Below, piece by piece: positions 14,615-59,596 of a stretch of 64,000 nt of DNA. The position numbers and the translations under genes are program-made. Origin of the DNA: Phyllosticta citribraziliensis (Eukaryota); the NCBI RefSeq assembly GCF_038025025.1, contig NW_027117340.1, forward strand, positions 744,001-808,000, written 5' to 3'. The notes below the pieces were generated by a model. It did not search any database. It was not told the DNA's origin and saw only the letters and a program-made list of their open reading frames with translations. How positions within the stretch are numbered: position 1 is the first letter of the stretch; each line of letters begins with the position of its first letter.

Positions 14615-14629
14615 AGGAGGGGGGGATAG

Positions 14630-14826: not shown

Positions 14827-14831
14827 TAGAT

Positions 14832-19184: not shown

Positions 19185-19185
19185 G

Positions 19186-19196: not shown

Positions 19197-19491
19197 TATT
19201 CTAAGTTTTAGCTCTATCCTACTTCTTACCTATAAAGGTATTATAATATTTAACCTAAGTGATGTTGTGTGTAGCTATAGTCTTATATAAGACTGCTTAT
19301 TACTTTTCCCTAGTAAACCTAAGTTATCTTTATTAGGCGTATTAGTATTATCTAAGGACTAAGGAGCATTAAGTATATATTAACTATAGAAGTCTTTAGT
19401 TAAGGCTATAGGGTAGTATATAAATATTTAGGAGGTATCCTATCTATAACCTGCTTAAGGGACATTCTAAGTAGAAGACTATAAAGATAGT

Positions 19492-23900: not shown

Positions 23901-24743
23901 TAGAATAATTAGTCTAATTTTCTACTATTAATGGACCTTATACAAGTAATACTTCCCTATAAAGCTACTAGACTTTTACCTTTTAAGATTAAGTTAGGAT
24001 ATTCCCCTTAAATATACTATAACTAGTAATAAAGAACAGAGACCCCCCAGTAACTAGAAAAGATGGCTTGCATAGTAGTATAAATGCTATAAAAGAGAAG
24101 ATAAGAAGCTTTTAAATTTATAAAGAATCTTATTCTTAAATCCTAAGAGTATATATACTAATAAGCTAATAAATACCGTCACGCGCCAGACTTTATAGTT
24201 AGAGATTATATCTATATTAAGAAAATAGGATAGTCTACTAATTAGCTAAACCTTAAATTAGACTTCCCTAATACTAGACCTTTTAAGATTATAGGAATAG
24301 AAGGACCCTCCTATATCCTTAATCTTCCCTTATATATAAAGATGGTTAACCTTTTCTATACTAATAGGCTATATAAGGCTGAAATAGAATAGCTTCCTAG
24401 TTAAGAATATACTAAACTAGAACCTAAGATTATTTAAGATGGGCCTAAGTAGGAAGTAGACTATATTTAAGCTAGTTAAGTCTTATATAGAAAGCTTTAA
24501 TACTAAGTTAAATGGACTAGATATAACTAAGATAACTAGTAGTATAATATAAGTTCTTTTAGTGGCGCACTATAGAAAATTAAAGAATTCTACTTATTAT
24601 ACCCTACTATAGTAGGACTATTAAAAAATCTAGAAAAATAGAAGACTGCCTTCCTCTAAGAAGAACTATAGATTAAAATAGAAAGTAATAATAAAATAAG
24701 TTACTTAGGCCTATAGTAAATATTATAAAGATATAGAAAGTAG
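20920..24743 (+). pseudogene. pol relic of A1 (PR-RT-RH-IN-chromodomain)
   Basis: Protease ALANTST (=ALADTGA) near 21060, RT *RFCMDY near 21935 and FIDN (=FxDD) 22239-22250, RNase H YGISDKELLAI near 22800, integrase PWQYLAIDF near 23540, chromodomain 24450-24600. Confidence 0.92.
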
Positions 24744-24857
24744 ACTAATTAGTTTACTATCTACCCTTATATAAATACTATTAACCTTAACTTCTACTCT
24801 CTAGTCTCTCCTTTTTACTACTTATCCCCTACTTCCCTCTTCTTTACTTTCTACCCT

Positions 24858-26356
24858 TTACTTCTATCCTTTTCCCTTCTTCTTATTATGACTATTATTA
24901 TATAAGATAGTCTCCTCTAGATCCTCTAGCTTATTAGGTAGGATATCCTATTTAGCTAAAGCCTAATTAGTTTAATCCTCTACCCTGGCTTAGTAGTATA
25001 AGTTCTAGAACTCCTCTATATAAATTTTATCTTTATACCTCTTATAATAAGTAGGCAGCTTAGCACCCTTTAAGTTACTAATAGTATAGTTTAAGTTACC
25101 TATACCCTAAAGGCAGTTAGTGCAACAGCCCTATAAGAAACTAGGTAGGTGGTAATAACTAATAAATATATAAGTATTAGTATTATTATAATACTTAGTA
25201 TAGCTAATAGGGTTATTAATTCTAGTATACTAGATAAGAAAAGCATTGCGTAAGCTAGCTTAAGTTTTAACTAATAAGTAGTTAAATTACTAAGTAGAAA
25301 CTATAATATATAAGTAAGGTATACTATTACCTAAGGCTAAGATATATTTAGTATACTCTTATACTTCAGAACTACTAAGGCGTGCCTGTATAGTTAGTTA
25401 GATAAGAATCCCTTATATTAGTAAGATAAACTTACTCGTGCGACACTCTCTATATTCTTATAAGGGATATAAAGTATTGACTTAAAGTCCTACTTAATAG
25501 GCACCTTATTAGAGCTGACTAGTGATGCTATAATGTAAATCTTACTATTACTACTATTATATAAAGCAGTAGGTAATAAGTACTTAGCTACTAGAACCTA
25601 ATAAGCTACAGGATTGCAATAATAGCGCGTATAAGTAGGCTCTTTACCTTCTTCCTCTAAAACAGGCTGTGCGACAGTAAACCAGTAGTAATATAGCATA
25701 ATAGGCTGGTTAGTAGTAGGCTATATAGCTATAGATGATAAACCTTATATAATAACTAATAATGCTAATTAAGTAGAACCTAATACTATAGTATACTATA
25801 GGTAAAGTAATAAGCCTATAGTAGTTCCTGGCTAAATAAGTAAAGCCTGGCCTAACTAAGTATTTATATAAGTATCCTCCTCTATAATTATATCAGTTAG
25901 CAAGACGGGACAATGAAGCAGTAAAACCTAGATATATAATACCACTTAATAGCCTAGATAATAATTAGTAATAGTCTAAAGAGATAGAATTAAAGTTTAC
26001 TCACCTTAGGACTCTATATAATAGCCCTTATAGATACTACTAGCTAAAATAGCTCTCTAAGTAAGTAGTAACTATAACAGATTATAAATAATACTACATA
26101 ATAATAACTTAATACTATGACTCTTATATAATAGTAATAAGTCCTGATAGACTAGACTATAATAAGTAGTAGATGTATTAAGTATATAGTAGCCAGGAAT
26201 ATCTACTTTACTATTAGTAGGGTATAAATTATTTAAATTATTAGAACCTTTATGCGCAATAGTTAGTTTACTAGATTATAGCTAAATTAGACTAGGATAA
26301 CAATATACTTTAATAGGGAGCTTTAGATATAGCTAAGTAAGATAGTAACCTTCTAT
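24858..26356 (-). pseudogene. Antisense intron-containing DUF3716-like cargo gene, A1 copy
   Basis: Reverse complement of 38895-40393. Retains the GTGAGT donor and GCTAAC branch site of intron 1. Confidence 0.75.
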
Positions 26357-26548
26357 AGGTTATGCGGTAAAAGAGATGGTAATAGAAAGAGATGGTATAG
26401 TAATAGACCTAGACTAATAATTATACTTTATAACTATATAGAATGCTTAAATTACTAAATTACTACTATTATATATTATAAGTCTGCGCCTGTATAAGTA
26501 TCTGCAGCTACTAATTCCTATGATTTTAGCTTCTCTTTAGGGGGGGCA

Positions 26549-26971
26549 TATTATAATAGGTATATATGCGCCTATATAAGTACTAGGGCCAGTATAGATA
26601 AACCTAGTGTCGCGCGGTCACAGGAAGTACGAGCCTTACCTTAGGTAGTAGCCTACTATAGCTTAGGCTAAAACCTATAGGCTAGTACTAGCTACTACAG
26701 GCTGGCACCAGCTACTACAGCCCTAGGTAGATACCATATAACAGCCCATTAATACCTCACCTTTATAACTTACCTAATAATAACTAAGGACCCTTATGTA
26801 AAGGATAAGAGGTAGAATAGTATAAAGGAAGGACTAGGAAATATATAGGTAGTAAGTATCTTTTATATTTTATTCTTTTAACTTATTATATTTAATTAAG
26901 ATATATATACATTCTCTAGCAGTTCACCTTTAGCCCTTACCTATATAATGAGAAATCTACAAGTCGTGACA
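26549..26971 (+). repeat. 3' LTR of A1 (423 bp)
   Basis: Direct repeat of the 5' LTR, follows the polypurine tract, ends TCGTGACA. Confidence 0.95.
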
Positions 26972-31544: not shown

Positions 31545-34500
31545 TTAGGGTTTCTTCTCCTTATTCTTTATACCTAGTAGATAACCTTATTACTTTAATA
31601 TTATAGGGATAGCTATTTCTAGTAGTATATATAGTAGTTTATTATATAATAGCTTATTCTATAGTAGTTTATTATATACCTTAGTAGGTAGTAGCTTATC
31701 TATATTATTATTTTCCTTTAGGTCTCTAGGTATAATAGTAGTATATTAAGGTAGTCCTAGTTTCTATTAGGGCCTATACTAGTCTAGCTTTACTATTATC
31801 TCTTTATTTAACCTTATATTATATTCTCTAATAAGATCTATTACTCCCTTTAAATTATCTAAGTTATATTATACTTAATACTATAGCCCCTAGCCTTTCT
31901 AATTAATTAAATATTATAGTTTCCTAGTCCTATAATATTTATACCTATCTACTAAGTATAAGATTTTATACTTAGGTACTAGCTTATTAGTATTAATAAT
32001 AGGTCCTAGCTCTAATATAGTATTATACTTAAAAGGGTTAGGACCCTCCTTTTCCTTTTCTAATTAGGAGATATTAATAACTAGATAAATCCTTAAGCTA
32101 CTAGGGATAGCTAGTTTATAGGCTTATATACTAATTACTTATATTACTTTATAAGGTCTAGTATATATATTCTAAAGTTTCTATAGTAGATTACTATATA
32201 TCTTATATTTATAGTATAACTATAGATATACCTTATCCCCTAGTTTAAACTAGACTAGATAGTACTTATTATTATATTACTCCTTTTATACTACTACTAT
32301 AAAAGTAAGGGCTTCTTAAGCTTTAATATAGTAGTTTAAATAGAGGGTTTTTAAGTCTATATCTTTAATAGATTCTATCTAGTTATACCTATTATCTTAT
32401 AGGTTAAATCTATATAAGATTTTATAGGGGGTATATCCTATTAAGGTATTTTAAGAAGAATTTATAGTCCCTTAAATATAAGGGAGAGTATTTATCTAAC
32501 TCTAATTAGGGTTAGCTATAATAAAGAACTATAGAGTAATTTCTATTATCTAGTTAATATACTTACTTTATCTATCTATCTAGGAATAGTAAGTAGTAGT
32601 AGTATTTAGGTTAATTTTTATTATTTTAAAAATACTACTTATAAATTACCCTAACTAATAGGAGTCCTAGTCTATAATTATAATAGAAGGTAGACCCTAT
32701 CTATATCTATAGAGTTCTTTAAACTATAAACCTCTCTAATTACCTATAGTCTAGGTCTCTTAACTAGGGATTAGTAAGATTACTTTAGAAAATTTATAAA
32801 TTATAATTAAAAGTATATTAAAATCCCCTTTACTATATATAGGTAGCTTAGTAATAAAATTAATATATATAATAAAGAAGGGGACCTTTACTACTATAAT
32901 AGGGACTATTAACCTATTAGGTTTATATTAAGGTATTTAGTTAATATAATAGTTAGGATAGTAATTAATATATACCTATACCTACTAGTATAGGTACCTT
33001 ATATAGTAGTAAGTATAAATATAATCTATATATTAGTCTATACCTTAATAGAAATACTAATTATATACTTATTTAAATACTACTTACTTATAGCTTTAGG
33101 GAATATATAGCTATTCTTACTAGTCTCTTAAGTAGTCTATAAAGTAGATTAGCCCTTTCTATAGAAAGAAGTATAGACTAGGAACTAGTCCTTTATAGGG
33201 GTCCTTATTTTCTTCTATATTATTAAGGGGAATAGGCTCTACTACTATAATAGGGGCCAGTATTACTATAGGTATAGGGTTTATATTAGTAGGTTACTCT
33301 ATAGTTATTATAGGGTTTACTAGCCTATAGTTATATTCCTACTACTACTTAAGGGCCTACTCTAAAATATAGAGTACCTTCACCTATTATATATTAGTAC
33401 TATATACTATATAGAGCTCTTACTTAAATCTATTAAAGAGTTCTACTAATACTATATAGAAGTAAGTAGTAGTATTACTACCTTTTAAGGTATACTAAAC
33501 TAGGTCCTTATTATTAGGGAATTCTATACTATTAAGGGTATTATCTATATCTATAATTACCTTAGATAATAATTAGCTTAGTATATTAGGGATAATATAG
33601 TTCCTCCCTAGCTAGTACTATACCTTTAATAGATACTAGCTTAGATATTAGCTTATATATATTAGATATAGGTTTAGTTACTCTATAAATTAGGAGTTTC
33701 TAAAGTATAGCTAGTATATAATAGTAGTAACTACTAAATAGTTAGTAAATACCTAAGTATCCTTAAAGGCCTATATAAGTATTTATAATTTCTTAATTAT
33801 CTAAATAACTCCTATTATCTTAAGCTTAGTAGTCTAGTACCTTATCTTAGCTCCTAAAAGATACTAGAATAGAAAGGCTATTAATTTAATAGACTACTTT
33901 AAGAAGTCCTTAGCCTTCTTAAGCTAATTTATAGTAGGGTTTTTACCCTCTATATTCTCTATATTTATAGTAGGAGTCTAGTCTTCTATAACTAATTTAA
34001 GATTACCTTTTATATAGTAGGCTATTATACTAAAACCTAACTCTTTACTAGTATCTATATTAATAAAAAGGGGCCTCTTAGGTATATAGTAAAAATACTA
34101 TTATATTTTATAAAGGGTTATTTATATAGCCTTAAATAATACTACTAATACTAGGGAGTCTAGTAGTACCTATACTACTATATATTAGTAGTATACTTAT
34201 TTATCTTTAGGAGTACTTTATAATAGTATAGTTTTTATAGCTTCTAGTAGTTCTACTAGTTATATATAGTAGGGATAGTTATCCTATAGCTAGCTAATAA
34301 GCCCTATAAAGGTTTCTAGTTCTTAGAGGGTCCTTAGGAATTTAAGGTCTTTTAGAGCTTAGATCTTAGCTTCTAATATTATAATACTAAACCTAGATAC
34401 CTACTATTCTAATAGTATAATAGATAGGTATCCTAACTAAGACTTCTTAATACTTAGGCTTATATTTATACTATTAAAGATAGTAAATACCTTTTTAAGG

Positions 34501-37500
34501 TAATCTAGGTATTCTTTTAATATTTTAGAGAAAATAGTAATATTATTAATATATATTTATATAAAAGTATAGTAGTTCTAAAGAAGAGTATTATACTACT
34601 ATTATATATATTATATAGAGTTATAGTATCCTATTAGGGCTATATTTAACTATTTAGTACCCTAGTAAGTAAGTATAATTAGCTTATATTAGTTATTAGG
34701 ATAGATCTACTACTAATAGAAGAAAGAGATAGTATCTACTACTAAGATATAGAGGTAATCCTAGATATTAGAGATAATATTAATAGCTAGGGGGAGTAGC
34801 TATAAGTCCTTTTTACTAATAGTATTAAAGGCTTATATATTTATAACTACTTATCCTTTCTACTCTAGGGTCCTATTCTCTTTAGGGACTAGCTTCTATA
34901 CTATAAATATAAAGAAGTTAAGATAAGTATCTCTATATACCTATTCTACTTTTCCTTATTTATATATAGGGTTAAGTATAGTATCTTAGAATTTATAGTC
35001 CCTTTAGGATATAGGGTATAGTCTTTAGTATTTAAAATATTTATACTAGCCTAGAACTAATAGTATCCTTATCTAATCCTTTTTAGGAACCTTAATAAAT
35101 CCCTTTTAATTATAGAAAAGATCTTAAAACTAATCTACTAGTTTCTAGTATAGTAACTAAACCTTAGGGGTCCTAAATATAGTAATACTATTATTAAGCT
35201 TAGCCTCCTCTATAATAGGTATAGTAGGATTTAAACTAGCTAGGCTATATTCTATATCTATAAAGTAGTATATCCTATTAAATTCTATAGTAATAATACT
35301 ACCTAGCTATATATTCTAGGAGATTATAAGAGACTAATCTAAGTTATTTCTAGTAATAATCTAGTTTATATCTATACTAGTAACTATAGTATAAAGAGTA
35401 CCCCCCTTTTATAGGAAGGGTATAGGATATATAGTTTTATTAGGATAGAACTTATATACTTAGTAAGGGAGGTCTAGTCCTAGGATTTTAATAAGTAGTT
35501 TTATCTAGGACTATAGGGGTATTATTATATTCTTTATAGTATATATATATTAGTAGATAGGAGTTAAAAATAGCTTAGTTATTATACTAGTATTTAGTCC
35601 CTTAGGCCCTATATATAGCTATACTACTTAGTTCTAACTAATATTAATAATTACCCCTTTAGGATATAGGAGGTTATTTCCTATAAATAAAGGGATATTT
35701 AACTTATTAGTTATCTAAGTATAGTAGGGAAGAAAGCTAAGAGCCTATCCTACCTTAGTTTATCTAGATAAATAAAGGGGAAGTATTATATAATTAGTAT
35801 ATTCTATCTTATATCCTACTTTAGTAATAATTATAGGTTTCTTAAATATTATTATCTTAATATTAGGGAGCTTTTCCTTTAAAAATATTCTATTTACTAT
35901 TAAGGATAAGGTACCTATATTAAGATACCTAATATCTATTATTCCTATAGGGGTTAGCCTAAAACTAATCTCTATTAATTAATATTTAGAAAATAGAGGT
36001 AGATTATCCCCTATACTAAGTCCTATAAAGGTTATAGATAACTCTAAGATTAGTACCTTTAATTCTATATTAACTATGGCCTTATCCTTTATCTTCCTAT
36101 ATTTACTATTAACTATATTAAACCCTAATATAGTAAGGTAGACTATTTAGTAATAGTATCCCTAACTAAGTATAGGAGTACCTTACCTATAGTACTATAT
36201 TACCTATACTATAAGGCTAAGAGGAAAGATTAATACCTACTAAAGAGCTATAACTATTAGAGTAAAGATATACTAAGAGGGGATAATATATTACTTAATT
36301 CTATTATTCTAATAGCTTTTAGGTACTAGTTACCTACTAACTAGATAGTACTCTATTTAGGTCCTAAATTCTTAAGTAGCCTAATACTTACTTAATTTAA
36401 ACTATATTTAAAACTATTATCCCTTAGGTACTAGTATAACTTATATTTAGAAGGGAAGCTTATTTAGTAGCTATTATATACTTTTTAGGGATTAAGTACT
36501 ATTATATTATTACTAGGAGTATAGTTAAAAGTATTATCCTAGATAAGTATATATCTATACTAGGAGTAGTAATTAGCTCCTATTATAATTATAGGCTTAC
36601 TATTATTTAACTATAATTTCTCCTTATTAATTATAGGGGTCTCTATACTAGTATCCTTATTACTTTTAGTATCTTTACTTTCCTTATTAGTATCCTTATA
36701 CTTACTTTTAGAGCTATCCTAGGTATAGTATTATATATATATAGTAGGTTTATAATTATAGTTATAGTTATAGTTATAGTTATAATAATCCTTAGGCTTT
36801 AAATAGGACCTAGAACTAGACCCTTTTAGGTTAGGAGTAGGGAGTATACCCTACTTAGGATAGGTTACCTATTTTATATTACTTAGTCTCCTAGTACTTA
36901 TATTATACTAGGATACTAAGTATATTCTATTAGATTAGTTAAAAGGCTAGCTAGTAGTCTATATTAAAGTATATCCCTAATTCTAGCCCTTAGGGAAGAA
37001 TACCTTACTAGTAGTAGTTATATTAAAATATTAGGATAGGTATTCCTAAGTCTACTAGTAACTCTTAATATTCTTAATAAATACTTAAATTATAGTATTT
37101 ACTATAGGTTTAGGGATCTACTACTAGAAGTAAGGGTTAATATATATATAGGTATTAGCTAATTAATTATATATAGTAAGGAAACTAGTAGCTTATCCTA
37201 GATATATATAGGTAATAATAAAGTCCCTTATACTTTTAGTATAGACCTCTAGGAGCCTAAAGTATACTCTATTTAGTACTTTAATAACTTTATATTATAT
37301 TATACTAAAGTCTTTATATAGTAGTAAAGTCTAATTATTAATACTATATCTAATATATATAAAAGCTTAGTCTTCCTCTATAAGTTAGGAGGTATACTAT
37401 ATATTTAATAATCCTTTTAGGTACTTCTATAGGTTAGTATAGATTAGATCTACTCTATAGGTAGTATAAGCTATTAAGGTACTATTAATAAACTACTCTA

Positions 37501-38279
37501 TAGTATAGTATAAGACCTTCCCTTATTTAGTTATACTATCTCTATAGCTAATATCTTCTTCTAGTAGATTAGGGTTAAAGTAATTAATATTATCTAGATA
37601 GAAATACTAGGCTATCCTCCCTATATATAATTCTAAGGTTAAGGCCTAGTTATACTCCTTATTATCTCCTATACCTTATAGAGGAATAAATTAAAAGGTA
37701 GTAAACTATTTATCCTCTTTATCCCTATCTTTAAGAGAAGGGGAGCTTAATAGGGGTAGTTCCTCTATCTTATACTAGGTATACCTTTCCTAGTATTACT
37801 ATCCTTAATTTTTACTAGAGAAGTAGTTCCCTTCCTATAGCTATAGTAGTCTTAATAGTAGTCTACCTCTACCTTAAGGTATACTTATTTTAAGTATAGA
37901 TAGGTATATACTAAGCTTCTTAAGTTACTTATTAACCCCCTTATTTATTATAATAAGGTTTATTATCTATACTTTCTATTATTTAAAGAATATATCTTAA
38001 AGTATATCTAGCTTTACTTCTAAAGATTCTAGGGTTATAATAGGCTACTAGATCTCTTTAGTCTAGTCTATAGTATTATACTAGTTATATATATATAGGA
38101 GTATTATATTATATAGGGGTAGCTAGTTATAATATATATACTTTAGGGGAGGATTTTAGTTTCCTAGTAGCTATTAGTAGAAGAAAGGAAGACTACTATA
38201 TATATATTAGCTAGAGGTCTAAATAAAACCTAGGCCTATACTACTCTAGAAAATATTAGGTAGTTAACTAAAGGGTTAA
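31545..38279 (-). pseudogene. gag-pol relic of B
   Basis: Gag with a C2H2-like finger at 36425-36481, protease near 36050-35950, RT 34542-34553, RNase H PLFINIDTSK near 34050-34080, integrase 32100-33100, chromodomain L*YLIN*KG*G near 31890-31925. Confidence 0.88.
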
Positions 38280-38702
38280 TGTCATGACTTACAGATTTCT
38301 TATTACGCAGGTAAGGGCTAAAGGTAAACTACTAGAGAATGCGTATGTGTCTTAATTAAATCTAATAAGTTAAAAGAATAAAATATAAAAGATACTTACT
38401 ACCTATATATTTCCTAGTCCTTCCTTTATACCATTCTACCTCTTATCCTTTATATAAGGGTCCTTAGTCATTATTAGGTAAGTTATAAAGGTAAGGTATT
38501 AATGGGCTATTATATAGTATCTGCCTAGGGCTATAGTAGCTAGTACTAGCCTATAGTGGCTAGTGCTAGCCTATAGGTTTTAGCCTGAGCTATAGCAGGC
38601 TACTACCTAAGGTAAGGCTCGTGCTTCCTATAACTATATAATACCAGGTTTATCCATGCTGGCCCTAGTACTTATATAGGCATATATATGCCTATTATAA
38701 TA
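38280..38702 (-). repeat. 3' LTR of A2
   Basis: Reverse complement of 26549-26971. Confidence 0.95.
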
Positions 38703-38894
38703 TGCCCCCCCTAAAGAGAAGCTGAAATTATAGGAATTAGCAGCTATAGGCACTTATATAGGTATAGACTCATAATATATAATAGTAGTGATTTAGTAAT
38801 TTAAGCGTTCTGTATAGTTATAAAGTATAATTATTAGTCTAGGTCTATTATTATACTATCTCTTTCTATTACCATCTCTTTTACCGCGTGACCT

Positions 38895-40393
38895 ATAGAA
38901 GGTTACTATCTTACTTAGCTATATCTAAAGCTCCCTATTAAAGTATATTATTATCCTAGTCTAATTTAGCTATAATCTGGTAAACTAACTATTACGCGCG
39001 AAGGTTCTAATAATTTAAATAATTTATACCCTACTAATAGTAAAGTAGATATTCCTGGCTACTGTGCGCTTAATATATCTGCTGCTTATTATAGTCTGGT
39101 CTATTAGGACTTATTACTATTATATAAGAGTTATAGTATTAAGTTGTTATTATATAGTGTTATTTATAATCTGTTATAGTTGCCGCTTACTTAGAGAGCT
39201 GTTTTAGCTAGTAGTATCTATAAGGGCTATTATATAGAGTCCTAAGGTAAGTAAACTTTAATTCTATCTCTTTAGACTATTACTAATTATTATCTAGGCT
39301 GTTAAGTGGTATTATATATCTAGGTTTTACTACTTTATTATCCTGTCTTACTAACTAATATAATTGTAGAGGAGGACACTTATATAAATACTTAGTTAGG
39401 CTAGGCTTTACTTATTTAGCCAGGAACTACTATAGGCTTATTACTTTACCTATAGTGTGCTATAGTATTAGGTTCTGCTTAATTAGTATTATTAGTTATT
39501 ATATAAGGTTTATTATCTGCAGCTGTATAGCCTACTACTAACTAGCCTATTATACTATATTACTACTGGTTTACTGTCGCACAGCCTATTTCAGAGGAAG
39601 AAGGTAAAGAGCCTACTTATATATACTATTATTATAATCCTGTAGCTTATTAGGTTCTAGTAGCTAAGTACTTATTACCTACTACTTTATATAATAGTAG
39701 TAATAGTAAGATTCGCGTCATAGTGTTGCTAGTTAGCTCTAATAAGGTGCCTATTAAGTGGGACTTTAAGTTAATACTTTATATCCCTTATAAGAATATA
39801 GAGAGTGTCGCGCGAGTAAGTTTATCTTACTAATATAAGGGATTCTTATCTAACTAACTATGTAGGTGCGCCTTAGTAGTTCTAAAGTATAAGAGTATAC
39901 TAAATATATCTTGGCCTTAGGTAATAGTATACCTTACTTGTATATTATAGTTTCTACTTAGTAATTTAACTACTTATTAGTTAAAACTTAAGCTAGCTTA
40001 TATAATGCTTTTCTTATCTAGTACACTAGAATTAATAACCCTATTAGCTATACTAAGTATTGCGATAATACTAATACTTATATATTTATTAGTTATTACT
40101 ACCTACCTAGTTTCTTATAGGGCTGTTGTGCTAACTACCTTTAGGGTATAGGTAACTTAGACTGTACTATTAGTAACTTAAAGGGTGCTAAGCTGCCTGC
40201 TTATTATAAGAGGTATAAAGATAAAATTTATATAGAGGAGTTCTAGAACTTGTACTACTAAGCCAGGGTAGAGGATTAAACTAATTAGGCTTTAGCTAAG
40301 TAGGATATCCTACCTAATAAGCTAGAGGATCTAGAGGAGACTATCTTATATAATAATAGTTATAATAAGAAGAAGGGAAAAAGATAGAAGTAA
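38895..40393 (+). pseudogene. Antisense cargo gene of A2: 3 exons (about 38895-39246, 39370-39815, 39866-40393), about 440 aa, C-terminal DUF3716-like CANC domain
   Basis: Introns 39247-39369 and 39816-39865 have GTRAGT donor, CTAAC branch and YAG acceptor, and splicing keeps the frame. De-RIP reading RNAFLIQYTG...CxxC...RAF.SC.HLPGF..GCCANCL.G....C. The start is uncertain. Confidence 0.78.
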
Positions 40394-40510
40394 AGGGTAG
40401 AAAGTAAAGAAGAGGGAAGTAGGGGATAAGTAGTAAAAAGGAGAGACTAGAGAGTAGAAGTTAAGGTTAATAGTATTTATATAAGGGTAGATAGTAAACT
40501 AATTAGTCTA

Positions 40511-43500
40511 CTTTCTATATCTTTATAATATTTACTGTAGGCCTAAGTAACTTATTTTATTATTACTTTCTATTTTAATCTATAGTTCTTCTTAGAGGAA
40601 GGTAGTCTTCTATTTTTCTAGATTTTTTAGTAGTCCTGCCATGGTGGGGTATAATAAGTGGAATTCTTTAATTTTCTATAGTGTGCTGCTAAAAGAACTT
40701 ATATTATACTACTAGTTATCTTAGTTATATCTAGTCTATTTAACTTGGTATTGAAGCTTTCTATATGAGACTTGACTAGCTTAAATATAGTCTACTTCCT
40801 ACTTAGGCTCATCTTGAATGATCTTAGGTTCTAGTTTAGTATATTCTTAACTAGGAAGCTATTCTATTTTAGCCTTATATAGCCTATTAGTATAGAAAAG
40901 GTTAACTATCTTTATATATAAAGGAAGATTAAGGATATAGGAGGGTCCTTCTATTCCTATAATCTTAAAAGGTCTAGTATTAGGGAAGTCTAATTTAAGG
41001 TTTAGCTAATTAGTAGACTATCCTATTTTCTTAATATAGATATAATCTCTAACTGTAAAGTCTGGTGTGTGATGGTATTTATTAGCTTATTAGTATATAT
41101 ACTCTTAGGATTTAAGAATAAGATTCTTTATAAATTTAAAAGCTTCTTATCTTCTCTTTTATAGTATTTATACTACTATATAAGCCATCTTTTCTGGTTA
41201 CTAGGGGGTCTCTATTCTTTATTGCTAGTTATAGTATATTTAAGGGGAATATCCTAACTTAATCTTAAAAGGTAAAAGTCTAGTAGCTTTATAGGGAAGT
41301 ATTACTTGTGCAAGGTCTATTAATAGTAGAAGATTAGACTAATTATTCTAAAAGTAATTAATAAAAGGTCTTAATCTTTATATAAGATACTGATTAATAA
41401 TCTCTATAATACTATTAGTTTAAGAGTAGTAGGATAAGTTAAAATGCTACTCTATACTAGTTAGCTTATATAATTCATTTATAAATACTGAGATGAACTG
41501 AGGGCCTTAGTTAGATAGGATAGACTTAGGGTTTCTATAAATATAATAAATATATTTATAAAAGAGCCTAGAGACTCCTTTAGTATTAATCTTTTTTATA
41601 TAAGGTAAGCTGAAGGTTCTTTAACTTAACTAGTCTATAATAACTAGAATTATATTGTAGCCTTTTTAGTCCTTAGGTATCTCTTTAAAATCTATGGCTA
41701 AGTGTTACTAGGGTTAAGTGGGAATTTCTAGGGGTTATAGAAGGCCTAGGTCTTTATTATAAAACTCTTTTATTTAGTAGTAAATATGGCATCCTTGCCT
41801 ATAAATATTAATTATATAATTTATAGCTGGCTAGTAGTAATATTACTTAAGGAGTTTTCGCATCTTTATAATACTAGGATAAGCAGTTATATAAGTAGTA
41901 TATAAGGTATTAAGTATTCTTATACAGAGGTTATCATAATCTAGTATAAAGAGGGTACTGTATTATAGTAAAAGACTATCCTTTAGTTCCTAACTATTTC
42001 TTTATTTAAGGTCTTTTAAGAGGGCTTTCTATCTTTAGAGTTCTAATTTAGAATCTTCTTAGTTTATATAGAGAAGTTCATCTAAAAATAATACTAGAGG
42101 AGGAAGTTCTTATTCTAAAATAGAAAGAGGGATAATAGTCTCTAGTAGGATAAGGTATATCTCTTATATAGCCTTTACTTTTTCTTTTTAAGTCTTCAGG
42201 TCTTCTTATTTTTAAGTAAGGTAATTAGTAATAATATTTTCCTTTCCTAGTTAATAGGAGAAGTATATATGGAACTCTATAAAAAACTTAGACTATCTAG
42301 CTTATTATTAATTAAGTTATTATTTGGTAGAGTAGTACTCTAATACCTAATAGTCTGTAATTATAAGAAAAGGTTTTTTAAGGCTAATAAGTATTAGTCT
42401 CTATTCTTCTAGTCTATTCTTAATAGCTAGTAGTTCTTTATTAGATATTCTATAATGAAGTTCTGTATTAGCTATTGCCTTAGAGTAGAACGCTACTAGT
42501 TTCTAATTATGTGAAGGTTATTAGAGCTATATTAAAATGCCTATAGTAACTCTATTACTTATATTAGTCTCTATATAAGTATTAAGAGTAGGATTATAAT
42601 TGGCTAGGAGTGTATTACTATATATTAGCTTCTTAAGTTGTTAAATTACCTCTTCTTCTAGGAGTCCTAGTTATTGCTATTTTACCTTAGAGTATAGTTT
42701 CTCTAATAGCTGGCTAATTTATCTATAGTTAGGGAGAAATTATTAGTAGAAATTATAGAAACCTAGGAAGGATTAAAGAGCTTTAAGGGTTTTAGGTATT
42801 AGCTAGTTTTATATAGGTTCTACCTTATCTAGGTCTATTTAAATGCCTTCTATAGAAATAATATATCTAAGGAACTTTATATAAGTAACTAAAAACTTAC
42901 TCTTCTTTAAATCTACCTATAGTCCTACTTTTTATAGTCTTACTAGTACTTTTTTTACTTATTCCTTATACTCTGTAGGGTCTTTAGAGATAATAAGTAT
43001 ATTATCTATAAAAGCTATAATAAAATTGTCTAAATACTTAAAGAGAACCTAGTTAATAAAATGTTAAAAGGCTGTAGGTCTGTTGCTTAATCTAAATGGT
43101 AAGATATAGTATTTAAATAAGCTATATCTTATATAGAAGGTAGTCTTATCTTTAGAATCCTTAGTAAGATAAATGTGGTGGAAAGCTTATTAAATATTAA
43201 GCTTAGTATAAATTTTGCCCTTTCTAACGCGCTGAAGTAACTCTATAATAAGAGGAAGGGGGTATAAATCCTTAGTAGTTTATTTATTAAGCTATTAGTA
43301 GTCTATATAGAATCTCTATCCCCTACCAGGCTTTTTTACTACTAGAATAGGAGAAGTGTAGGTGGTAAAGCTTTTAGTAATAAAGCCTTTCTAAATATTC
43401 TTAATAATATACTCTTTTATAGCCTTAAGCTGCTCTAGAGATATTCTATAGAGAGGACTTAGTAGAAGCTCTAGTAGACTATTATATATAAGAGTTATTT

Positions 43501-45759
43501 TATAATTAACTCCTATGTAATATAGTGGTAGCTTATTAGACTCTATTTTAGAAAATATATCTTGAAATTCCTTATAAGTAGCTAGTAGCTTAGAAGCTAG
43601 TAATTCCTTAGTTTCTTTATCTTTAAGAGCTACTTAAACTTGTATGAGGTTGATAGTATAGATCTCTATTAGTATAAGTTGTAATTTATAGATAGAAATC
43701 TTAAAAGTATCTTAATTTTGAAATTTAATTCCCTTAATAACCTGTACTAAGGGAAGAAGGTGTTTATTAAATTTTTTATCTCTGTAGTCTGTATCTGCTT
43801 AATGTTCTTTCTGCGGTTCTTTACTTTATATAGAGACTTTTAGTAGGTGTAAAAGATACTAAAAGGATTAGTTAACTAGTAGCTATCTCTAGACTAGTTT
43901 ATATTATTTATAGTCTAGAAGAATATCGTGCTGGTTAAAAAACTATTACCTAAGAATTATATTATTATGGCTAATATTATAAATAAAAGTATAAGTAGAA
44001 ACTATTTAATCTTAGAAATAGAGTTAAAGATAAAAGTAAAAATTAACTTTCTTATTTATATATTAGTTAAACCTAGTAATATTAAGCCCTTTGCCTATTA
44101 TTCTCTTTTTTACAGTACCTATAGACTAGAGAGTTAGTAGTAGCTTAGGGTAAATAAAACTTATACTACTAGTACTAGTATTAGCTAGGGCATAAATTTC
44201 TAAGGTATGGCTATTAGATATAATTGAGGTTTGTATAGTAAAGGGTATACCTCTAATAAAGTGACTAAGATTTATGCGAGAACCTTTAATATGTATTACT
44301 CTAAGTTTAGATCTAAGGTAGGAGACTTTACCTAGGCCTTATTATTTTCTAATAAAGACTAATCTCCTTTATTTATATAGACTTCTTCTATACTTTCTTC
44401 TTCTACTAACTCTATTGCCTTTATCTCTAGTTATAGGTATTACCTCTATAAATGGCTAAACTAGCTATAGTGATTATATGGTCTAATCTCTATATAGACT
44501 TCTACTTTACCTTTATAGGTTATATTATATAAGGGAGCCCTAGATATAGATCGCGCCTAGGTATAATTAGAAGATAAAGTACTTATACTACCTAAGGTAG
44601 TTATCTTTACTTATTCTTATTATCTCTTCTTTACTTAATCCTTACGCGACGTGAGTATTAGTTTTCTTTAATTAGAATAGTAGTTACTAAGACTTTAAGT
44701 AATAGGGTAGGCTTATTAGAGGTACTTATAAAAGTTAATATCCTTATCTTACTTTATAGTAACTATATAGGTTTAAAGGAGAGGATCTATTATATTATAA
44801 AAGTCCTCTTTCTACTATTCTTAGGGAAGATCTATATCTAAGGCTAATTATATAAAGTTTAATTAAAACTTCTAAAGGTCTGTAGGAATATAGTATATAA
44901 GAGAGTATAACTACTTCTTTATATCCTTATATTTATATAGACTCTAGAAGAGGTTATCTAGGAATTTAAAGATATCCTTATCTAGAGTGACTTTATTGGC
45001 CTTTATATAAGAAGTGAGAAAAGGAGTTAGGTAATATAAGACTTCTCTACTAATATAGGAAATAATATAACCTATAATATTCTATTTAGTCTCCTCTACT
45101 ATATCCTTAGTAAAGTGATCGTGGTTTTATTTAATTTTATTTTATATAAGGAGGGTCTAGTATTTATATAAGGGGTCTTCTCTATTAGTAAGAAGAGGAG
45201 GATTAGGAACCTTACTACTTTAGTATTTCTTACTACTTAAAGATAAAGTAGAGGTTTTAGTAGTAGTTTCCCTTATATAGGTAGGAGGATCTTAAGAGAG
45301 GATAATAGGTCTTAGGTACTAAGATAATAAAGAGGGCCTAATATGTCCTTCCCTTAGAACTTCCCTAAGCCTATTAGTATAGTTTAAGAGCATTTACTTA
45401 AGAGCCCAGTTCTACCTTTATATATAGTTTAGTTGCTGCTATACTTAAGACTTATTTAAGGATGTAATCTTAGATTTAAATTAATTAATATCTAAGTGTG
45501 GTACCTTTATAAATACCTCTATAACTAGAGCTTAAACTGTATAAGTTAACCCTAGGTCTTAGGTATATTCTTTCACCTCTACTGCTAGAACTAAGTAGAA
45601 ATTATATAGGAGAATAGGGGTAGGTCCTCTCTTATTATTATTTAATAAGTATCTAGTATTGCGCGAATCTTTAGTCCCTTTATATAAATCTTATTAAGTT
45701 AATTAACCAGTACTGACACCTTTAGTAGTGCTAGATATATTAGCTTTATTCTTAGCTAT
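40511..45759 (-). pseudogene. gag-pol relic of A2
   Basis: Collinear reverse complement of A1 19492-24743. Confidence 0.92.
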
Positions 45760-46066
45760 ACTATCTTTATAGTCTTCTACTTAGAATGTCCCTTAAGTAG
45801 GTTATAGATGGGATACCTCCTAAATATTTATATACTACCCTATAGCCTTAACTAAAGACTTCTATAGTTAATATATACTTAATACTCCTTAGTCCTTAGA
45901 TAATACTGATGCGCCTAATAAAGATAACTTAGGTTTACTAGGGAAAAGTAATAAGTAGTCTTATATAAGACTATAGCTATATATAATATTGCTTAGGTTA
46001 AATATTATAATACCTTTATAGGTAAGAAGTAGGATAGAGCTAAAACTTAGAATGATCTTTTATATC

Positions 46067-46489
46067 TATTATAACTTATAGATTTCTCATTATATAGGTA
46101 AGGGCTAAAGGTAAACTACTAGAGAATATATATATATCTTAATTAAATCTAATAAGTTAAAAGAATAAAATATAAAAGATACTTATTACCTATATATTTC
46201 CTAGTCCTTCCTTTATACTATTCTACCTCTTATCCTTTATATAAGGGTCCTTGGTTATTATTAGGTAAGTTATAAAGGTGAGGTGTTAATGGGCTGTTAT
46301 ATAGTATCTACCTAGGGCTGTAGTGGCTGGTGCTAGCCTATAGTGGCTAGTACTAGCCTATAGGTTTTGGCCTAAGCTATAGTGGGCTGCTACCTAAGGT
46401 GAGGCTTATGCTTCCTATAACCGCGCGACGCTAGGTTTGTCCGTACTGGCCCTAGTGCTCGCATAGGCGCGTGTATGCCTATCGTGACA
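46067..46489 (-). repeat. 5' LTR of A2
   Basis: Direct repeat of 38280-38702, ends ATCGTGACA. Confidence 0.95.
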
Positions 46490-49949: not shown

Positions 49950-52900
49950 TATAAATACTATAGGCTAAGGGCCCTTATATAGGGGGGATTACTACTAAAG
50001 GGCTAGAGTACCTAGTCTAGAAATAGGTCTAGTAGCTACCCTATAGCTTAGTAGTATCCCTACTATTAGCTAGGATATAGTTATTAGTAGGGTATATAAT
50101 TATAGTATATACTAGTAGTTTTAGTATATATAGTAGTTATCTTCTTATAGAGTATAGGGTAGTACTAGTCTTAAGTCTTTTATTATACTCTTTAATAAGG
50201 TCTATAGTATTTTTAAGGTTATTAATATTATACTAGACTTAGTACTAAGGGCTATAGCCCCTCTATTTAACTAAGTACTAGAGCTACTTTATAAAGGGGT
50301 TATATTAGTAGTCTAGTAAGGTTTTAATTTTATACTCTAGGGCCAGGTTATTAATATTTACTATAGGTATAGGGTCTAGTAGTACTTAGTAACTATAAGG
50401 GTTATTATTAGAATTATACTTAAGTTAGCTAACTAATATAATAGGGTAGATTTTTATTAGCTCTAGGAGGTTAAGCTTATATACTAAGGGGCCTATAACT
50501 CTCTTTACTTAATAAGGCCCTATTCTTAGTAGTTATAGCTTTTTTAGTAGGTTACTATAAATCTTATACCTAAAATATAGGTATAGTAGTACCTTATCTC
50601 TAATCTTAAACTAGACTAGCTTATAGTAAGAGTTATAGTACTCTTTCTAGATAATAGTAGTAAAAGCTAGGGCTTCTTAGGCTTCTACCTAGTACTAGGT
50701 ATATAGTACCTTAGTATTAATATCCTTTATACTCTTAAAATTACTAAATATAGTAGTTTATAGGTTAAAGCTATATAGAATCTTATATAGTATATACCTA
50801 GTAGATATATTATAGGATATATTTATTATCCCTTATATATAGGGAAGTATATCTATCTATATATAATTAGGATTAGTAAATATAAAATAATATATTATAT
50901 ATTCTAAAGTCTAGTTAGTATATTCTAACTATCTATTAGCCTATAGGTAATATACTATAGTACTATAGAATTATATCTTTAATATTATAAAAACTTATAT
51001 AATAAATTTAGATAGCTATTTTATATCCTAGTTTAAGATTAATATACTAGGTAGGCCCTAGCTATAACTATATAGGTCCTTAAACTAAATTAAGGCCTAT
51101 TACCTAGTAGTCTATATTTCTAGCCCTAGGGTAAGTAGGATTACTTTAGAGAACTTATATATAATAATAAGGAGGCTATTAAAACTACTATCTATAATAG
51201 CTAGGAGCTTTATAATAAAATTAGTATATAATATAAAGAAGGGGATCTTAACTATAGTAATTAGTATTAAGCTACTATAGGGGTAGTACTATTTAGTAGT
51301 TATATACTTATAGTTAGGGTAATTTTCTATATATAAGTATAGCTACTTATATAACTAGTATATATAAAATAAGGCCCTAATAAAGTCTATAGCTTAATTA
51401 GGGCCTTAATAGCTATAAGTATTATATATAAACTAGAAGATCTCCTTCTTATAGGCTAGAGGGATATATAGATATTTCCTATTTTTCTTAGTATAGTTAA
51501 TAAAGTAGATAAGCCTATAGTATAGGATAAACTATAACTTTAGAATAGGATTATTCTTACTAAAGTATATCTTAATACTCTATAGCTATTCCTTATTACT
51601 TACTTCTTCTTAAGGGGCCTCTACTAGTAAGTTACTTCCCCTAGGTATATTTATCCTAGTTAAGACTAGTATATCTACTCTAGTTAATATAGGTATATCT
51701 ACCCTAGTTCTATCCTAGGTTACCTTAATAGGCTAGCTTTTAAACTATCTTTCTAGGGCTATAGCTTATTTAAGTACTTATAATATATAAGCCTACTATA
51801 GATCTACTATATAGCCTTTCTATACTTTATTTTTAAAAGTATTAGTTATTTCTACTAATATAATATAGAAGTAGCTTATAGCCCTAGTAGGGTTAGAGTT
51901 ATATATTACTATAAATTATATAGGATCTATATTATCTAGGAATTCTACCTTATCTATAATATCTCTATTATTATAGCTAGCTTTTAAAGGTAACTAGCTT
52001 AAGGTATCTAATATAATATAATTCTATCTAAAATAGTACTTTATAGTTAAAGGAAATTATAATAGATATTATAATATTTATATTAGGTATAGATTTAATT
52101 ACTTATTAGATTAAGAAGTAGTAAATATTTTCTACTATACTAGTACTATTATTATAGTATAGTCTATAAAAAGTATTATATAGGCTACTAACTATACTAA
52201 AGTATATAGTTTCTTAACTACCTAGTATACCCTAGTTATCTTAAGTTTAGTAATCTAGTACTATATTTCTATATTAAATAGCTATTATAAGAGGAATATA
52301 ATTAGCTTAATTAATTAATATAAAAAGTCCTTTACTTATTTAAGCTATAGGGGTAGTCTCTCCTTATTAATATTAGCTATTATAACCTTTAATTACTAGT
52401 CTTCTATTTCTAATTTAGGGTCTTTAATAATATAGTATACTATAACTCTAAATCCTAACTCCTTTAAAGTATCTATATTAATATATAGTAGTTATAATAG
52501 ATTATAGTAAAACCTCTAATATATCTTATAAAGTATATTATATATTATATTAAATACTATTATTAGTAATAGCTCTAATAATATTAGTTTAATTATTATA
52601 AAGTATCTCCTTACTTACTTATCTTTTAGGGCTTTTTATAGATATAATATCTTAATTACCTCTAGGGGCTTAGCTAGCTAGGTATAATAGAGGTAATTAT
52701 CTTATAGCTATTCTATTAGTCTAATAAATATCTTAAGTTTTTATAGTATATAGGGGAAAACTATATCCTTAAGGGCCTAAATCTTAGTATTAAAGGTAGT
52801 AATTCCTAGCCCTAATACCTATTAGCCTAAGAGTATAATTAATAGGTACCCTAGATAAGTTTTCTTAATAGATAGGCTTATATTAACTTAGTCTAATATA

Positions 52901-55900
52901 GTAAAGATAGCCTCTAAGTACTAGATATACTTATCTAATAATTATAAGAAGATAATAATATTATTAATATAGGGGTATAAAAAGGCCTAGTAATTCTAGA
53001 GTAATATATTATATTATTACTATATATACTAAATACTATTATAGTAGCCTATAAGAGTAATATTACTTTATTCTACTCTATAATAGGTAAGTATTACTAG
53101 CTTATATTAGTCCTCTATATATACTCTCTATTAGTAGAAGAATATAATTATATTAACTACTAAAATAAAGAGGTACCCTTAGATTTCTAAAATAATATTA
53201 GATACTAGTAGTAGAGGGTAGCTATTCTTCTCTATAATAATATTTAGTATATAAATATTAATAATAATATAATCTTTCTATTTAAGCTCCTTATTTTTAC
53301 TAGGGACCTATCTCTATACTATAAAAACTAGGAACCCTAGACTTATATTACCTTATACCTATTTAGCTTTACCCTACTTATATATAGGATTAAGAGTATT
53401 ATCTTAGAATTCTTTATCTTATTATAAGGCTATATATAATTATATCTATTAGAATTTATCTCTCTAATCTAAGACTAGTAAAATATATATCTATTCCTCT
53501 TTAAGAACCTTAATAAACCCCTTTTAATTAGTAAATAGGTCCTTAAATTAGTTTATAAGGGCTTAGTAATATTCCCTAGTCTTAGAGAGGCTAAAGATTA
53601 GGATACTATTATCTAGCCTTCCTTCTTTTATTATTAGGAGTAATAGGTTTAGGGCTACTAGGCTATAGTCCCTATTAATAAGCTAATAGCTTATATTAAA
53701 CTCTACTACTATTAGACTACCTAATTATATATTCTTTAAGATAGTTAGGGTCTAGTTAGAGTTATTTTATATAATAATCTAGGTTATATTAGTATTTATT
53801 ATAATAGAATATAGGGATCCTCCTTTCTATAAGAAGGGGATAGGTCTTATACTATAATTAAGGTAGAACTTATAATATTAGATTAGTAATATTAGTCTAG
53901 GTATATAGATAGGTACTTTTATAGTACTATAAGGTAGTACTATAGTATATTTACTTATTATAATATATTAATATACTAGTATTATATATATCTTTATTAT
54001 TACTAAGATTTTAAAGCCTCCTTTACTAAAGTAGGGCTAAATTACTTAATCCTTTCTAAGGTCTATAATTACTACTTTAGGATATAGAATATTATTCCCT
54101 ATTAGTAGTAGGACTAATATATCTTAATTAATAATATATATATAGTAAGGGATATAGGCTATAGCTTTACTATCCTTTATATACCCTAGTAGGTAAAGGG
54201 ATAGGAGTATATAGTCTATATATAATATTATAGTACTAATACTATTAATTTATATAGGCTTTAGGAGTATAAGGATTTTTATATCTAGTAGTTACTCTTA
54301 TAAGAAGCCTTAGGTAATTAGTAAGGATAATACCCTAGTATTAAGATATATAATATCTATAAGTCCTAATATATAGAGCTAAAAGCTATACTTAAGGGAC
54401 TAGTAATAAGGAAACCCTAATAAGCTATTATCTACTAGTAACCCTAATAGTACTTATTTAGATATTAAGATAGGGGGATCCTTATTAGATAAAGCCTTTT
54501 TATTAGTCTCTTTAGTACTAGGATCTATTATACTTACTATTATAAATAAACTACCTATTAATAGGGTATAGCCTTTAGCTTTACTCCTTTAGTCCTAGTA
54601 TAGTATAGTATATATAGCTAAGCTAAATAGGAAGAGTAGGCTCTATATTAATATATAGATTACTAGAATAAGTTATAGTTAAGAAGGGGCTATATATTAT
54701 CCTATTATATAGCCCTAAGTCCTTTTAGGGACTCTTATTATTAATAGTAGCTATAAATATATCCTTACCCTATATATTATAGGTAGCTCTTAAAGAACTA
54801 TATTAGTAACCTATACCCTATAAATAGTAATATAGCTATTATTTTAACTAGAACCTCTCCTAATAACTATTATATACTATTATATATATAGGGGCTAGTT
54901 TAGGTCCTATATTAAGCTAGTCTAGGGATTAGTTAAAAGCTATTAGATAATAGTATTAGCTATAATTATAGACTAATATATTAAGAGATTAATTAGTAGA
55001 TTCTATCTTCTCTTCTCCTATTATCTTAGAGATAGGGGAACCTAGCTCTTTAGGGGCTAGTTTCTCCTCTTTACTAAACTTATCTTTAGCTTCTTTATAT
55101 TATATAAGGTATTATCTATAAGTAGTTTATTTCTTATTAATATTCCTTATATTATTACTCTTAGACTATTATAACTAGGATTCTAAACCTAACTCTTTTT
55201 TTAATCCTATTCCTATATTTCCTAGGGTAGGTAATATAAGTTATTTTAGGTATATAACCTATTTATTATTACTTAGTCCCTTAGTACTTATATTATACTA
55301 AGAGGCTATATATCTTTTATTAGTCCTTTTATAGTTTACTTAGCTATAGGGGTAATCTTAATTAATTATCTATCTCTAGCCTTACTAGGGGAAGGTTCCC
55401 TTACCTACTTTATAATATTATACTAGGTACTCCTAGATTTAGTAATAACTCTTAATTATTTTAATAAAGAATTATATAGTTATTTAGGGTATAGGCTCCT
55501 CTAGCTACTACTAGTAGAAAGGATTAATCTTAGTAAAGGTATTAATAAGCTAGTTATAAATAGTCTAGAAACTAGCTATATATCTTAAATAGATATAAAT
55601 AATTATAAAGTCTTTAATACCCTTATTATATACCTCTTTAAGACTAAAGCTAATAGTATTTAAAGTATTAATTATCTTATACTAGGTTATACTAAAATCC
55701 TTATAAAGTAAGGTAGCCTAGTATTTAATATTAACCTTAGTATATATATAGGTATAATCCTTCTCTATAATTTATAAAGTAAACTATATATTAGTAGTTC
55801 CTTTAAGATACTTCTATAGGTTAAGTTATACTATCCTAGTACTAAATATTATATAAGTTATCTAAGTACTATTAATAAATTATTCTATAGTATAGTAAAC

Positions 55901-57379: not shown

Positions 57380-57802
57380 TGTCACGACTTGCAGATTTCT
57401 TATTATATAGGTAAGGGCTAAAGGCGAACTGCTAGAGAATACGTATATATCTTAATTAAATCTAATAAGTTAAAAGAATAAAATATAAAAGATACTTACT
57501 ACCTATATATTTCCTAGTCCTTCCTTTATACTATTCTACCTCTCATCCTTTATATAAGGGTCCTTAGTTATTATTAGGTGAGTTATGAAGGTGAGGTATT
57601 AATGGGCTATTATATGGTATCTGCCTAGGGCTGCAGTAGCTGGTGCTAGGCTGTAGTAGCTAGTACTAGCCTATAGGTTTCAGCCTGAGCTATAGTAGGC
57701 TACTACCTGAGGTGAGGCTCGTGCTTCCTATAACTGTATAATACTAGGTTTATCTATGCTGGCCCTGGTGCTTATATAGGCGCATATACGCCTATTATAA
57801 TA
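57380..57802 (-). repeat. 3' LTR of A3
   Basis: Direct repeat of the A2 LTRs. Confidence 0.95.
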
Positions 57803-57994
57803 TGCCCCCCCTAAAGAGAAGCTGAAATTATAGGAATTAGTAGCTATAGGCGCTTATATAGGCATAGACTTATAATACATAATAGTAGTAATTTAGCAAT
57901 TTGAGCATTCTGTATAGTTATAAAGTATAATTATTAGTCTAGGTCTACTACTATACTATCTCTTTCTATTACTATCTCTTTTACTGCGCGACCT

Positions 57995-59493: not shown

Positions 59494-59596
59494 AGGAAGG
59501 GATAGTAGGGAATAAGTAATAAAAAGGAGAGACTAGAGAGTAGAAGTTAAGATTAATAGTATTTATATAAGGGTAGATAGTAAACTAATTAGTCTA

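Follow-up and report, generated by a model that had tools for sequence, protein, structure and literature searches.

Relic of an antisense DUF3716-type gene carried by RIP-mutated copies of a chromovirus in Phyllosticta citribraziliensis

Introduction

Antisense open reading frames (ORFs) between pol and the 3' long terminal repeat (LTR), known as aORF-3R, have been described in the plant elements Grande1, RIRE2, Retand and PvRetro13, and among fungi the gene brtn lies antisense between pol and the 3' LTR in Boty-like elements of Botrytis cinerea and Sclerotinia sclerotiorum (both from PMC7264820). Elsewhere, brtn is cited for Boty-like elements once more (PMC8365987) and a "brtn-106" is named (PMC4227169). 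Genes of the DUF3716 family (Pfam PF12511) appear in a mobile element of another kind: REP9 of Zymoseptoria tritici, a 7.9-kb class II element, holds two of them (PMC8232023). A cellular member, PSC58 of Fusarium, is said to be orthologous to Neurospora NCU05718 (PMC10776026), a direct binder of double-stranded TTAGGG repeats in which no DNA-binding domain is annotated (PMC4650311). Here we analyse 64,000 nucleotides (nt) of Phyllosticta citribraziliensis DNA (NCBI RefSeq assembly GCF_038025025.1, contig NW_027117340.1, positions 744,001 to 808,000 of the forward strand), called the window below, and a Ty3/gypsy chromovirus in it, element A, present as three copies, A1, A2 and A3. The original prediction for this DNA, made from its letters, proposed that element A carries an antisense, intron-containing gene with a DUF3716-like cysteine domain, and treated such an arrangement as unusual; the plant and Boty genes are earlier examples of it. 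Our analysis gives a family name, DUF3716, to the antisense accessory gene of a fungal LTR retrotransposon.

Results

A DUF3716-type domain on the antisense strand of element A

The reading that the antisense strand of all three copies holds a DUF3716-type domain is well supported, and so are its strand, its place in the element and its carriage by the element. The candidate sites, with their scores in a search that allows for repeat-induced point mutation (RIP), are as follows.

39983-40192, + strand: DUF3716-type domain relic in A2, antisense to the element, 33.2 bits
25059-25268, - strand: DUF3716-type domain relic in A1, 34.0 bits
59083-59292, + strand: DUF3716-type domain relic in A3, 31.1 bits

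The damage in the window is classical RIP, near saturation. G+C is 23-31% across the whole 64 kb; in a 1869-column alignment of the three copies over the region from pol to the 3' LTR, 230 of the 234 variable columns are transitions; and in the accessory region of element A the TpA/ApT ratio is 1.7-1.9 and (CpA+TpG)/(ApC+GpT) is 0.31-0.46. All three copies are dead through RIP. Stop counts, open-frame lengths and counts of "rescued stops" fail to distinguish even the true pol frame from other frames, and all three were dropped as a coding test.

A word-indexed protein search with exon 3 of the predicted gene, its stops read as X, gave 25 word-sharing candidates and none at an expectation value (E) of 10 or below. 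The window motif F-x2-G-C-C-A-N-C-x2-G was therefore back-translated and scanned against metagenome contigs. Of 26 loci found, only L008 and L010 are open and resemble eukaryotic DNA; the two are identical in sequence (48-49% G+C). Their ORF reads ...ACERCQRNLGRYQICVHLPDFFSGCCANCLQGGTNSCSL and is a Pfam DUF3716 member (36.3 bits, E 5.3e-9); it agrees with the window beyond the search pattern, in an H-L-P ahead of the Phe, in a Leu that follows the Cys and in a Gln at the position of a TAG in the window. Two low-GC (33%) loci, L012 and L017, match the motif within a long, repetitive Asn/Thr/Cys-rich frame unrelated to DUF3716. A full HMMER search with the L008/L010 ORF returned 46 proteins at E<=1e-3, 45 of them carrying PF12511; Amylocarpus, Kalaharituber, Ophiocordyceps and Hyaloscypha are named among the matches listed. 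From 45 of the 46 we built a profile of 120 states.

In the RIP-aware Viterbi search, the score of each codon came from its likelihood given each codon that could have been its ancestor, with C-to-T changes allowed before A or G and G-to-A changes after T or C, and the null used the same model. The search covered 642 chunks of 200 codons in all six frames, 582 of which lie outside the three regions and served as controls. The best control reached 19.8 bits, and over all 642 chunks the median was 11.2 and the 99th percentile 18.9 bits; a Gumbel fit (location 10.53, scale 1.46) gives 7e-5 to 5e-4 scores as high as those of the three sites expected per window. Since the seed of the profile had been picked through the window's own motif, the profile was rebuilt without the seed, its two closest relatives and every member bearing GCCANC (40 sequences left); the sites then scored 33.4, 32.6 and 30.8 bits against a control maximum of 20.9. 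When the assumed mutation rates were varied from 0.5/0.2 to 0.95/0.7, the three sites stayed at 29.5-34.3 bits and the controls at or below 19.9. The likeness to DUF3716 noted in the original prediction holds up under this score.

The two highest control scores, at 33429 (+ strand, 19.8 bits) and 33605 (- strand, 19.1-20.9 bits), lie 180 nt apart in another repeat family; they are probably noise, since among about 600 chunks a maximum of this size is to be expected.

Chance is the explanation to be weighed at this point: a string that looks Cys-rich could arise from Tyr-rich, RIP-mutated DNA once any T may be taken for a former C and any A for a former G. Every TAA or TAG is formally derivable by RIP, whatever the frame, and a scoring by the best possible ancestor discriminated poorly (74.2, 72.6 and 61.7 bits at the sites, 65.6 elsewhere in the window), for which reason we discarded it as too permissive. 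The likelihood scoring, in contrast, sets the site 11-14 bits above all 582 control chunks, and does so without the seed. Moreover, unmodified translations single out the same places: a plain hmmsearch (--max, E<=1000) of the six X-masked frames of the whole window reported just three, which are the domain sites of A1, A2 and A3 (25098-25151 on the - strand, 1.6 bits; 40103-40192, +, 0.5 bits; 59200-59286, +, -4.1 bits), at very low scores. We regard chance as extremely improbable.

A joint scoring of the three copies reaches 39.0 bits and spans profile positions 46-113 (39983-40192 in A2). The domain, about 70 residues long, would read C-x2/3-C ... F-x2-C-x2-LP-x-F-x2-G-C-C-A-N-C-x2-G-x5-C. 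The second, fourth, fifth and sixth of these cysteines (C2, C4, C5, C6), the Gly before the CC and the A-N pair are retained in at least one copy, and RIP changes can be seen directly as differences between copies in exon 3 codons (TAT/TGC, TAT/CGC, TAA/CAA). A three-copy consensus that takes C or G wherever a copy retains it reads ...RNAFLI*YT...RAFISYHHLPSFL*GCCANCL*GIGNLDC...KKKGKG, with asterisks for stops, and so reproduces the motif string quoted in the original prediction. Searched in six frames with the 45-member profile, this consensus scores 12.9 bits (E 2.5e-5), in the predicted frame.

Element A and its three copies

The cargo lies within a well-delimited element. The limits of the copies and of their LTRs come from self-BLAST and reading of the ends, and Pol was placed by tblastn of intact Pol relatives.

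18782-26971, sense + strand: element A1, complete; target-site duplication (TSD) GTTAT; accessory region 24690-26548
38280-46489, sense - strand: element A2, complete, 8210 bp; TSD TTAAC
57380-64000, sense - strand: element A3, cut by the window end; 3' LTR 57380-57802, accessory region 57803-59650
38280-38702, - strand: 3' LTR of A2, 423 bp
46067-46489, - strand: 5' LTR of A2, 423 bp
38703-38712, - strand: polypurine tract AGGGGGGGCA, directly upstream of the A2 3' LTR and the same in all three copies
40619-43666, - strand: Pol of A2, protease to chromodomain, RIP-degraded

The 423-bp LTRs start with TGTCACGA and end with TCGTGACA, and thus have TG...CA ends; these termini and the polypurine tract are intact. 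Among 73 intact Pol proteins retrieved at E<=1e-5, which carry rve and Chromo domains, the relative P0055 is colinear with A2 43666-40619 through residues 303-1326 of its 1360 (tblastn, E 1.5e-134). On the X-masked - strand of A2, Pfam calls RVT_1 (1.4e-17) and RT_RNaseH (6.4e-12), and it calls neither rve nor Chromo on this RIP-mutated reading. With the order of reverse transcriptase, RNase H, integrase and chromodomain found through the colinear Pol match, element A classifies by homology as an 8.2-kb Ty3/gypsy chromovirus. Coding potential places gag in frame -f1 (44300-45700) and pol in -f0 (40700-44200), both on the - strand; the difference of frame may be either a frameshift used by the element or an acquired indel.

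The copies are 91.7-94.3% identical (self-BLAST: A1/A2 94.3% over 8218 nt, A2/A3 91.7% over 6663 nt, A1/A3 92.5% over 6643 nt). Because the 5-bp TSDs of A1 and A2 differ and the flank of A3 is different again, the copies go back to a minimum of two independent insertions of one family, and probably to three; the cargo has accordingly travelled with the element, as had been proposed. In A2, Pol ends near 40520-40619, leaving about 1.8-1.9 kb before the polypurine tract, which agrees with the 1.8 kb claimed for the three copies. In all three copies the domain therefore occupies the aORF-3R position: in A2 it is on the + strand, pol is on the - strand, and the polypurine tract follows. Contigs of four further sequencing runs cover the accessory region in part, at 90-99% likeness; these contigs are short (100-340 nt) and RIP-mutated, with no less-mutated copy among them.

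Could the 1.9 kb instead derive from a REP9/IS3EU-type DNA transposon, a piece of which inserted into an ancestor of element A? REP9 and its DUF3716 genes make the question a fair one. An inverted-repeat search and a six-frame scan, however, found neither REP9-type terminal inverted repeats (TIRs) nor a DDE/RVE transposase around the cargo: all 16 inverted pairs are short, AT-rich and internal, none bounding the region, and none of its six frames gives a transposase-like signal, with the proviso that RIP could hide TIRs and mask a transposase. We consider this origin very unlikely.

Beyond element A, a second and far more diverged repeat (66-70% identity) lies at 32144-37606 and 50505-55993, at similar distances beside A2 and A3. 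As the immediate flanks of the two copies differ, A2 and A3 look like separate insertions near the same older repeat family, not one duplicated block. Older repeat families also occupy the part of the window from 1076 to 16150, where 2423-6083 matches 9660-13273 at 77% and inverted partial copies lie near 15000-16150. The whole window seems to consist of nested RIP-mutated transposons without an intact gene, and it contains no TTAGGG repeats.

Exons, introns and frames of the accessory gene

The original prediction joined three exons across two introns, with the coordinates below in A2.

38895-39246, + strand: predicted exon 1, weakly supported; its proposed start is ATA in all three copies
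39247-39369, + strand: putative intron 1, 123 nt; GTAAGT (A2) or GTGAGT (A1) ... CTAAC ... YAG
39370-39815, + strand: predicted exon 2, likely coding, without a homologue
39816-39865, + strand: putative intron 2, 50 nt; GTAAGT ... CTAACTAAC ... YAG; leads from frame +f2 to +f1
39866-40393, + strand: predicted exon 3, containing all of the conserved block of DUF3716 as well as a Lys-rich tail; stop uncertain

We scored coding potential with a RIP-aware measure, amino-acid-weighted against uniform codons, per 100 codons. On this scale the true pol frame reaches +5.9 and gag +2.1, and other frames run from +1.3 (the + strand opposite pol) down to -22. Exon 3 scores +4.1 and exon 2 +1.8, each the best of six frames (next -2.0 and -9.6, respectively); A3 has an open stretch of 95 codons at exon 2, and inside intron 1 the score of the exon frame falls to -14.4.

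Intron 2 has the firmer footing of the two introns. Frame +f2 is favoured until about 39795 and the domain lies in +f1 from 39983, an upper bound set by the domain alignment, so that a frame shift is required in between. Because a canonical 50-nt intron lies in just this interval, we rate an intron at 39816-39865 as likely from the sequence; the frame change that it had been proposed to explain does fall there. A change-point scan of generic coding potential did not place the switch sharply, 40144 and 39814 being nearly equal. As for the signals, both introns have CTAAC and YAG at the proposed positions, the donor of intron 2 is GTAAGT in all three copies, and that of intron 1 is good in A1 and A2 and destroyed in A3 (ATAAGT). 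The pattern GTRAGT...CTRAC...YAG has ten instances on both strands of the 64 kb (128 kb in total), five of which are the sites of introns 1 and 2. Six of nine listed indels fall in intron 1 (39260-39275), at most a weak hint, as they come from only two contigs, of two other runs. We grade intron 1 as plausible only. No sequencing run with this stretch is recorded as RNA; in run X11, whose RNA label is a guess and which may be DNA, contigs cross both putative introns unspliced (39156-39405 and 39749-39882).

The intact relative allows a comparison over a longer protein. At L010, positions 1393-2487 appear to hold a gene of three exons (introns at about 1706-1749 and 2059-2111) for a protein of 331 amino acids (aa), and the 97-aa database protein P0003 is probably a truncated call of the same gene. 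When the spliced L010 protein was compared with the region, only the domain was significant (41.0 bits, shuffle maximum 20.5). Its best N-terminal matches, of 17.7 and 18.0 bits, lie outside the predicted frames. An alternative is that the protein was shorter and started inside exon 3, where codons 22-26 ("IPYLY") could correspond to the family's M/L-P-x-x-R block; the spacing from "IPYLY" to the Gly of "RG" is 29 residues, as judged by eye to be the case in the family. The Ser/Pro-rich N-terminus claimed for the longer protein is not borne out by the consensus as it stands: exons 1-2 of the consensus contain only 11% Ser and 7% Pro, and the label depends on further inferred reversals. At the other end, A3 lacks 14 nt at 40385-40398 (A2 coordinates), at the predicted stop after KKKGKG; this deletion is not a multiple of three, and the true end of the reading frame is therefore uncertain.

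Discussion

Based on these findings, we propose that the active form of element A carried an antisense DUF3716 gene with one or more introns between the end of pol and the polypurine tract, and we put the probability of this at roughly 75%. The domain, the strand and place in which it lies, its occurrence in independently inserted copies and the need for a change of frame where the putative 50-nt intron lies are what we observe. In the transposing form, one extra gene would have stood on the strand opposite to gag-pol, and its product would have been a protein with a cysteine-rich DUF3716 module of about 70 residues. The spliceosome does not recognise antisense-strand introns in sense RNA, and these so pass through reverse transcription, a principle on which engineered retrotransposition reporters also rely. 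Since the gene is antisense to the genomic RNA, its intron or introns would go unrecognised there and be copied intact in each round of retrotransposition. Expression would then be possible only from integrated DNA, through a promoter of the gene's own or antisense activity near the 3' LTR, and the protein may have been a DNA-binding accessory factor that influenced how the element itself was expressed, targeted or silenced. Intron 1, exons 1-2, the promoter and this accessory role are the parts of the scheme that we infer. The original prediction had conjectured transcription from the 3' LTR and a nuclear, metal-binding product.

Several results weigh against the scheme and have to be set beside it. 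The first group concerns the gene model. The three exons do join into 1326 nt, or 442 codons, as had been predicted, but the spliced model keeps 30 stops in A2, 23 in A3, 28 in A1 and 22 in the consensus. Exon 1 has a negative coding score, -4.4, even though it is the best of six frames (next -7.9); intron 1 has a length that is a multiple of three, which makes the frame independent of it; and the spliced L010 protein has no likeness to exons 1-2 or to the tail, the N- and C-terminal parts scoring within or barely above shuffles. The second group concerns the domain. C1, C3 and the Gly of "RG" are TAT or AGA in all three copies and thus RIP-compatible only, which the original prediction had allowed for a few residues; the Gly of the family's G-x-F is Arg in element A. 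The alignment needs two one-residue insertions, located between the first two Cys and ahead of the Phe, and the three copies are one witness of the domain, not three independent ones. The third is the behaviour of Pfam itself, which at E<=10 gave no match for three readings of exon 3 and six frames of the whole region (stops as X). We attribute the blank to RIP damage because the same scan misses the integrase and chromodomain of element A. The present-day window sequence stays below the Pfam gathering cut-off of 22 bits for DUF3716, and the locus is a relic of a DUF3716 gene and not a present-day Pfam member. Lastly, we found no intact copy, so that the cargo may have been either a functional accessory gene or a carried relic.

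This last point bears on a reading in which the cargo is a dead passenger: part of a host DUF3716 gene, intron included, would have been captured a single time in reverse orientation and then retained, never serving the element. Selection cannot be read from RIP-saturated copies, and the closest intact relative, L010, adjoins an adenylate-kinase-like gene and does not lie in a retroelement. The nearest intact Pol relatives are on contigs of about 5.5-6.1 kb, too short for a 1.9-kb insert if these are whole elements, a comparison of lengths only. Yet the family's conserved block is complete and colinear in element A, canonical splice signals are retained in A1 and A2, and the region has come through a minimum of two separate insertions, probably three, and is present also in the copies of other runs. 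We therefore hold a passenger to be unlikely and prefer a gene that belonged to the active element.

The family fold offers little guidance on what such a gene did. An AlphaFold model of a DUF3716 family member is of high confidence (predicted local distance difference test, pLDDT, 92.5; predicted template modelling score, pTM, 0.83), and it has no match in the PDB, either by Foldseek (E<=0.001) or by VIA-align wide (Z>=2, 48,161 chains); for want of a match the fold gave no clue to function. Our suggestion of a DNA-binding accessory factor comes by analogy from PSC58, whose reported orthologue NCU05718 binds TTAGGG repeats, and is tentative. Going further, DUF3716 could be a DNA-binding module that unrelated fungal transposons have recruited repeatedly, some cellular DUF3716 genes, including the telomere-repeat binders, being domesticated from them; we offer this as a speculation that we consider unlikely. 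If recurrent recruitment did occur, DUF3716 could serve targeting, transcriptional control or the blunting of genome defence, and the antisense, intron-bearing layout would be an LTR element's way to keep a spliced gene.

How does the locus compare with the systems already described? Boty is the nearest in structure. Like element A, it is a fungal chromodomain-bearing gypsy element with one antisense extra gene between pol and the 3' LTR, and Boty LTRs are about 0.6 kb long, as against 423 bp in element A. Its gene brtn was reportedly first described by Zhao et al. in 2011 (Virology 417:248), and our comparison is made through the descriptions in papers that cite it. Element A could thus be Boty-like, and its antisense gene brtn or a homologue, in which case only the Pfam label would be new. 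Besides the position and orientation of brtn, the size of many DUF3716 matches, about 70-170 aa, would fit a small antisense ORF. On the other side, the text supplements of PMC8365987 (its domain-map figure aside) contain neither "brtn" nor "DUF3716", and the accessible portions of the DUF3716 literature (PMC8232023, PMC10776026) do not link the domain to an LTR element. An identity of this kind deserves consideration but seems doubtful to us, and that brtn itself is a DUF3716 protein is likewise conceivable without being our expectation. As matters stand, element A differs from Boty in that its cargo is identified as DUF3716 and that every copy is RIP-dead.

The plant aORF-3R genes share position and orientation with the gene of element A, and proposals for their role include a regulatory or a nuclear one; they belong, in contrast, to plant non-chromovirus lineages and encode unrelated proteins, none reported as DUF3716 in the accessible portion of PMC7264820. 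REP9 shares the cargo: it is a multicopy fungal transposon with the DUF3716 genes REP9-1 and REP9-2, but it belongs to class II, is IS3EU-like and has TIRs of 43 bp and TSDs of 6 bp (PMC8232023), whereas element A has 423-bp LTRs and 5-bp TSDs. The cellular DUF3716 proteins of Ascomycota, such as that of L010 and Fusarium PSC58, have the same conserved block and cysteine spacing, and L010 has short introns as well; these are single-copy host genes outside transposons, and the second intron of L010 directly follows the last Cys, whereas the putative intron of element A lies about 40 codons before the domain.

The antisense cargo arrangement was thus already known in outline from plant elements and Boty, and a DUF3716 cargo in an LTR element would be new unless brtn is DUF3716. 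Methodologically, a RIP-aware likelihood profile search has recovered a domain of about 70 residues that ordinary scans overlook in RIP-saturated DNA. If intact relatives of element A exist, the function of DUF3716 and of antisense retrotransposon genes becomes testable in them. Element A and REP9, an LTR element and a class II element, together suggest that this uncharacterised cysteine-rich domain is recurrently linked with mobile elements.

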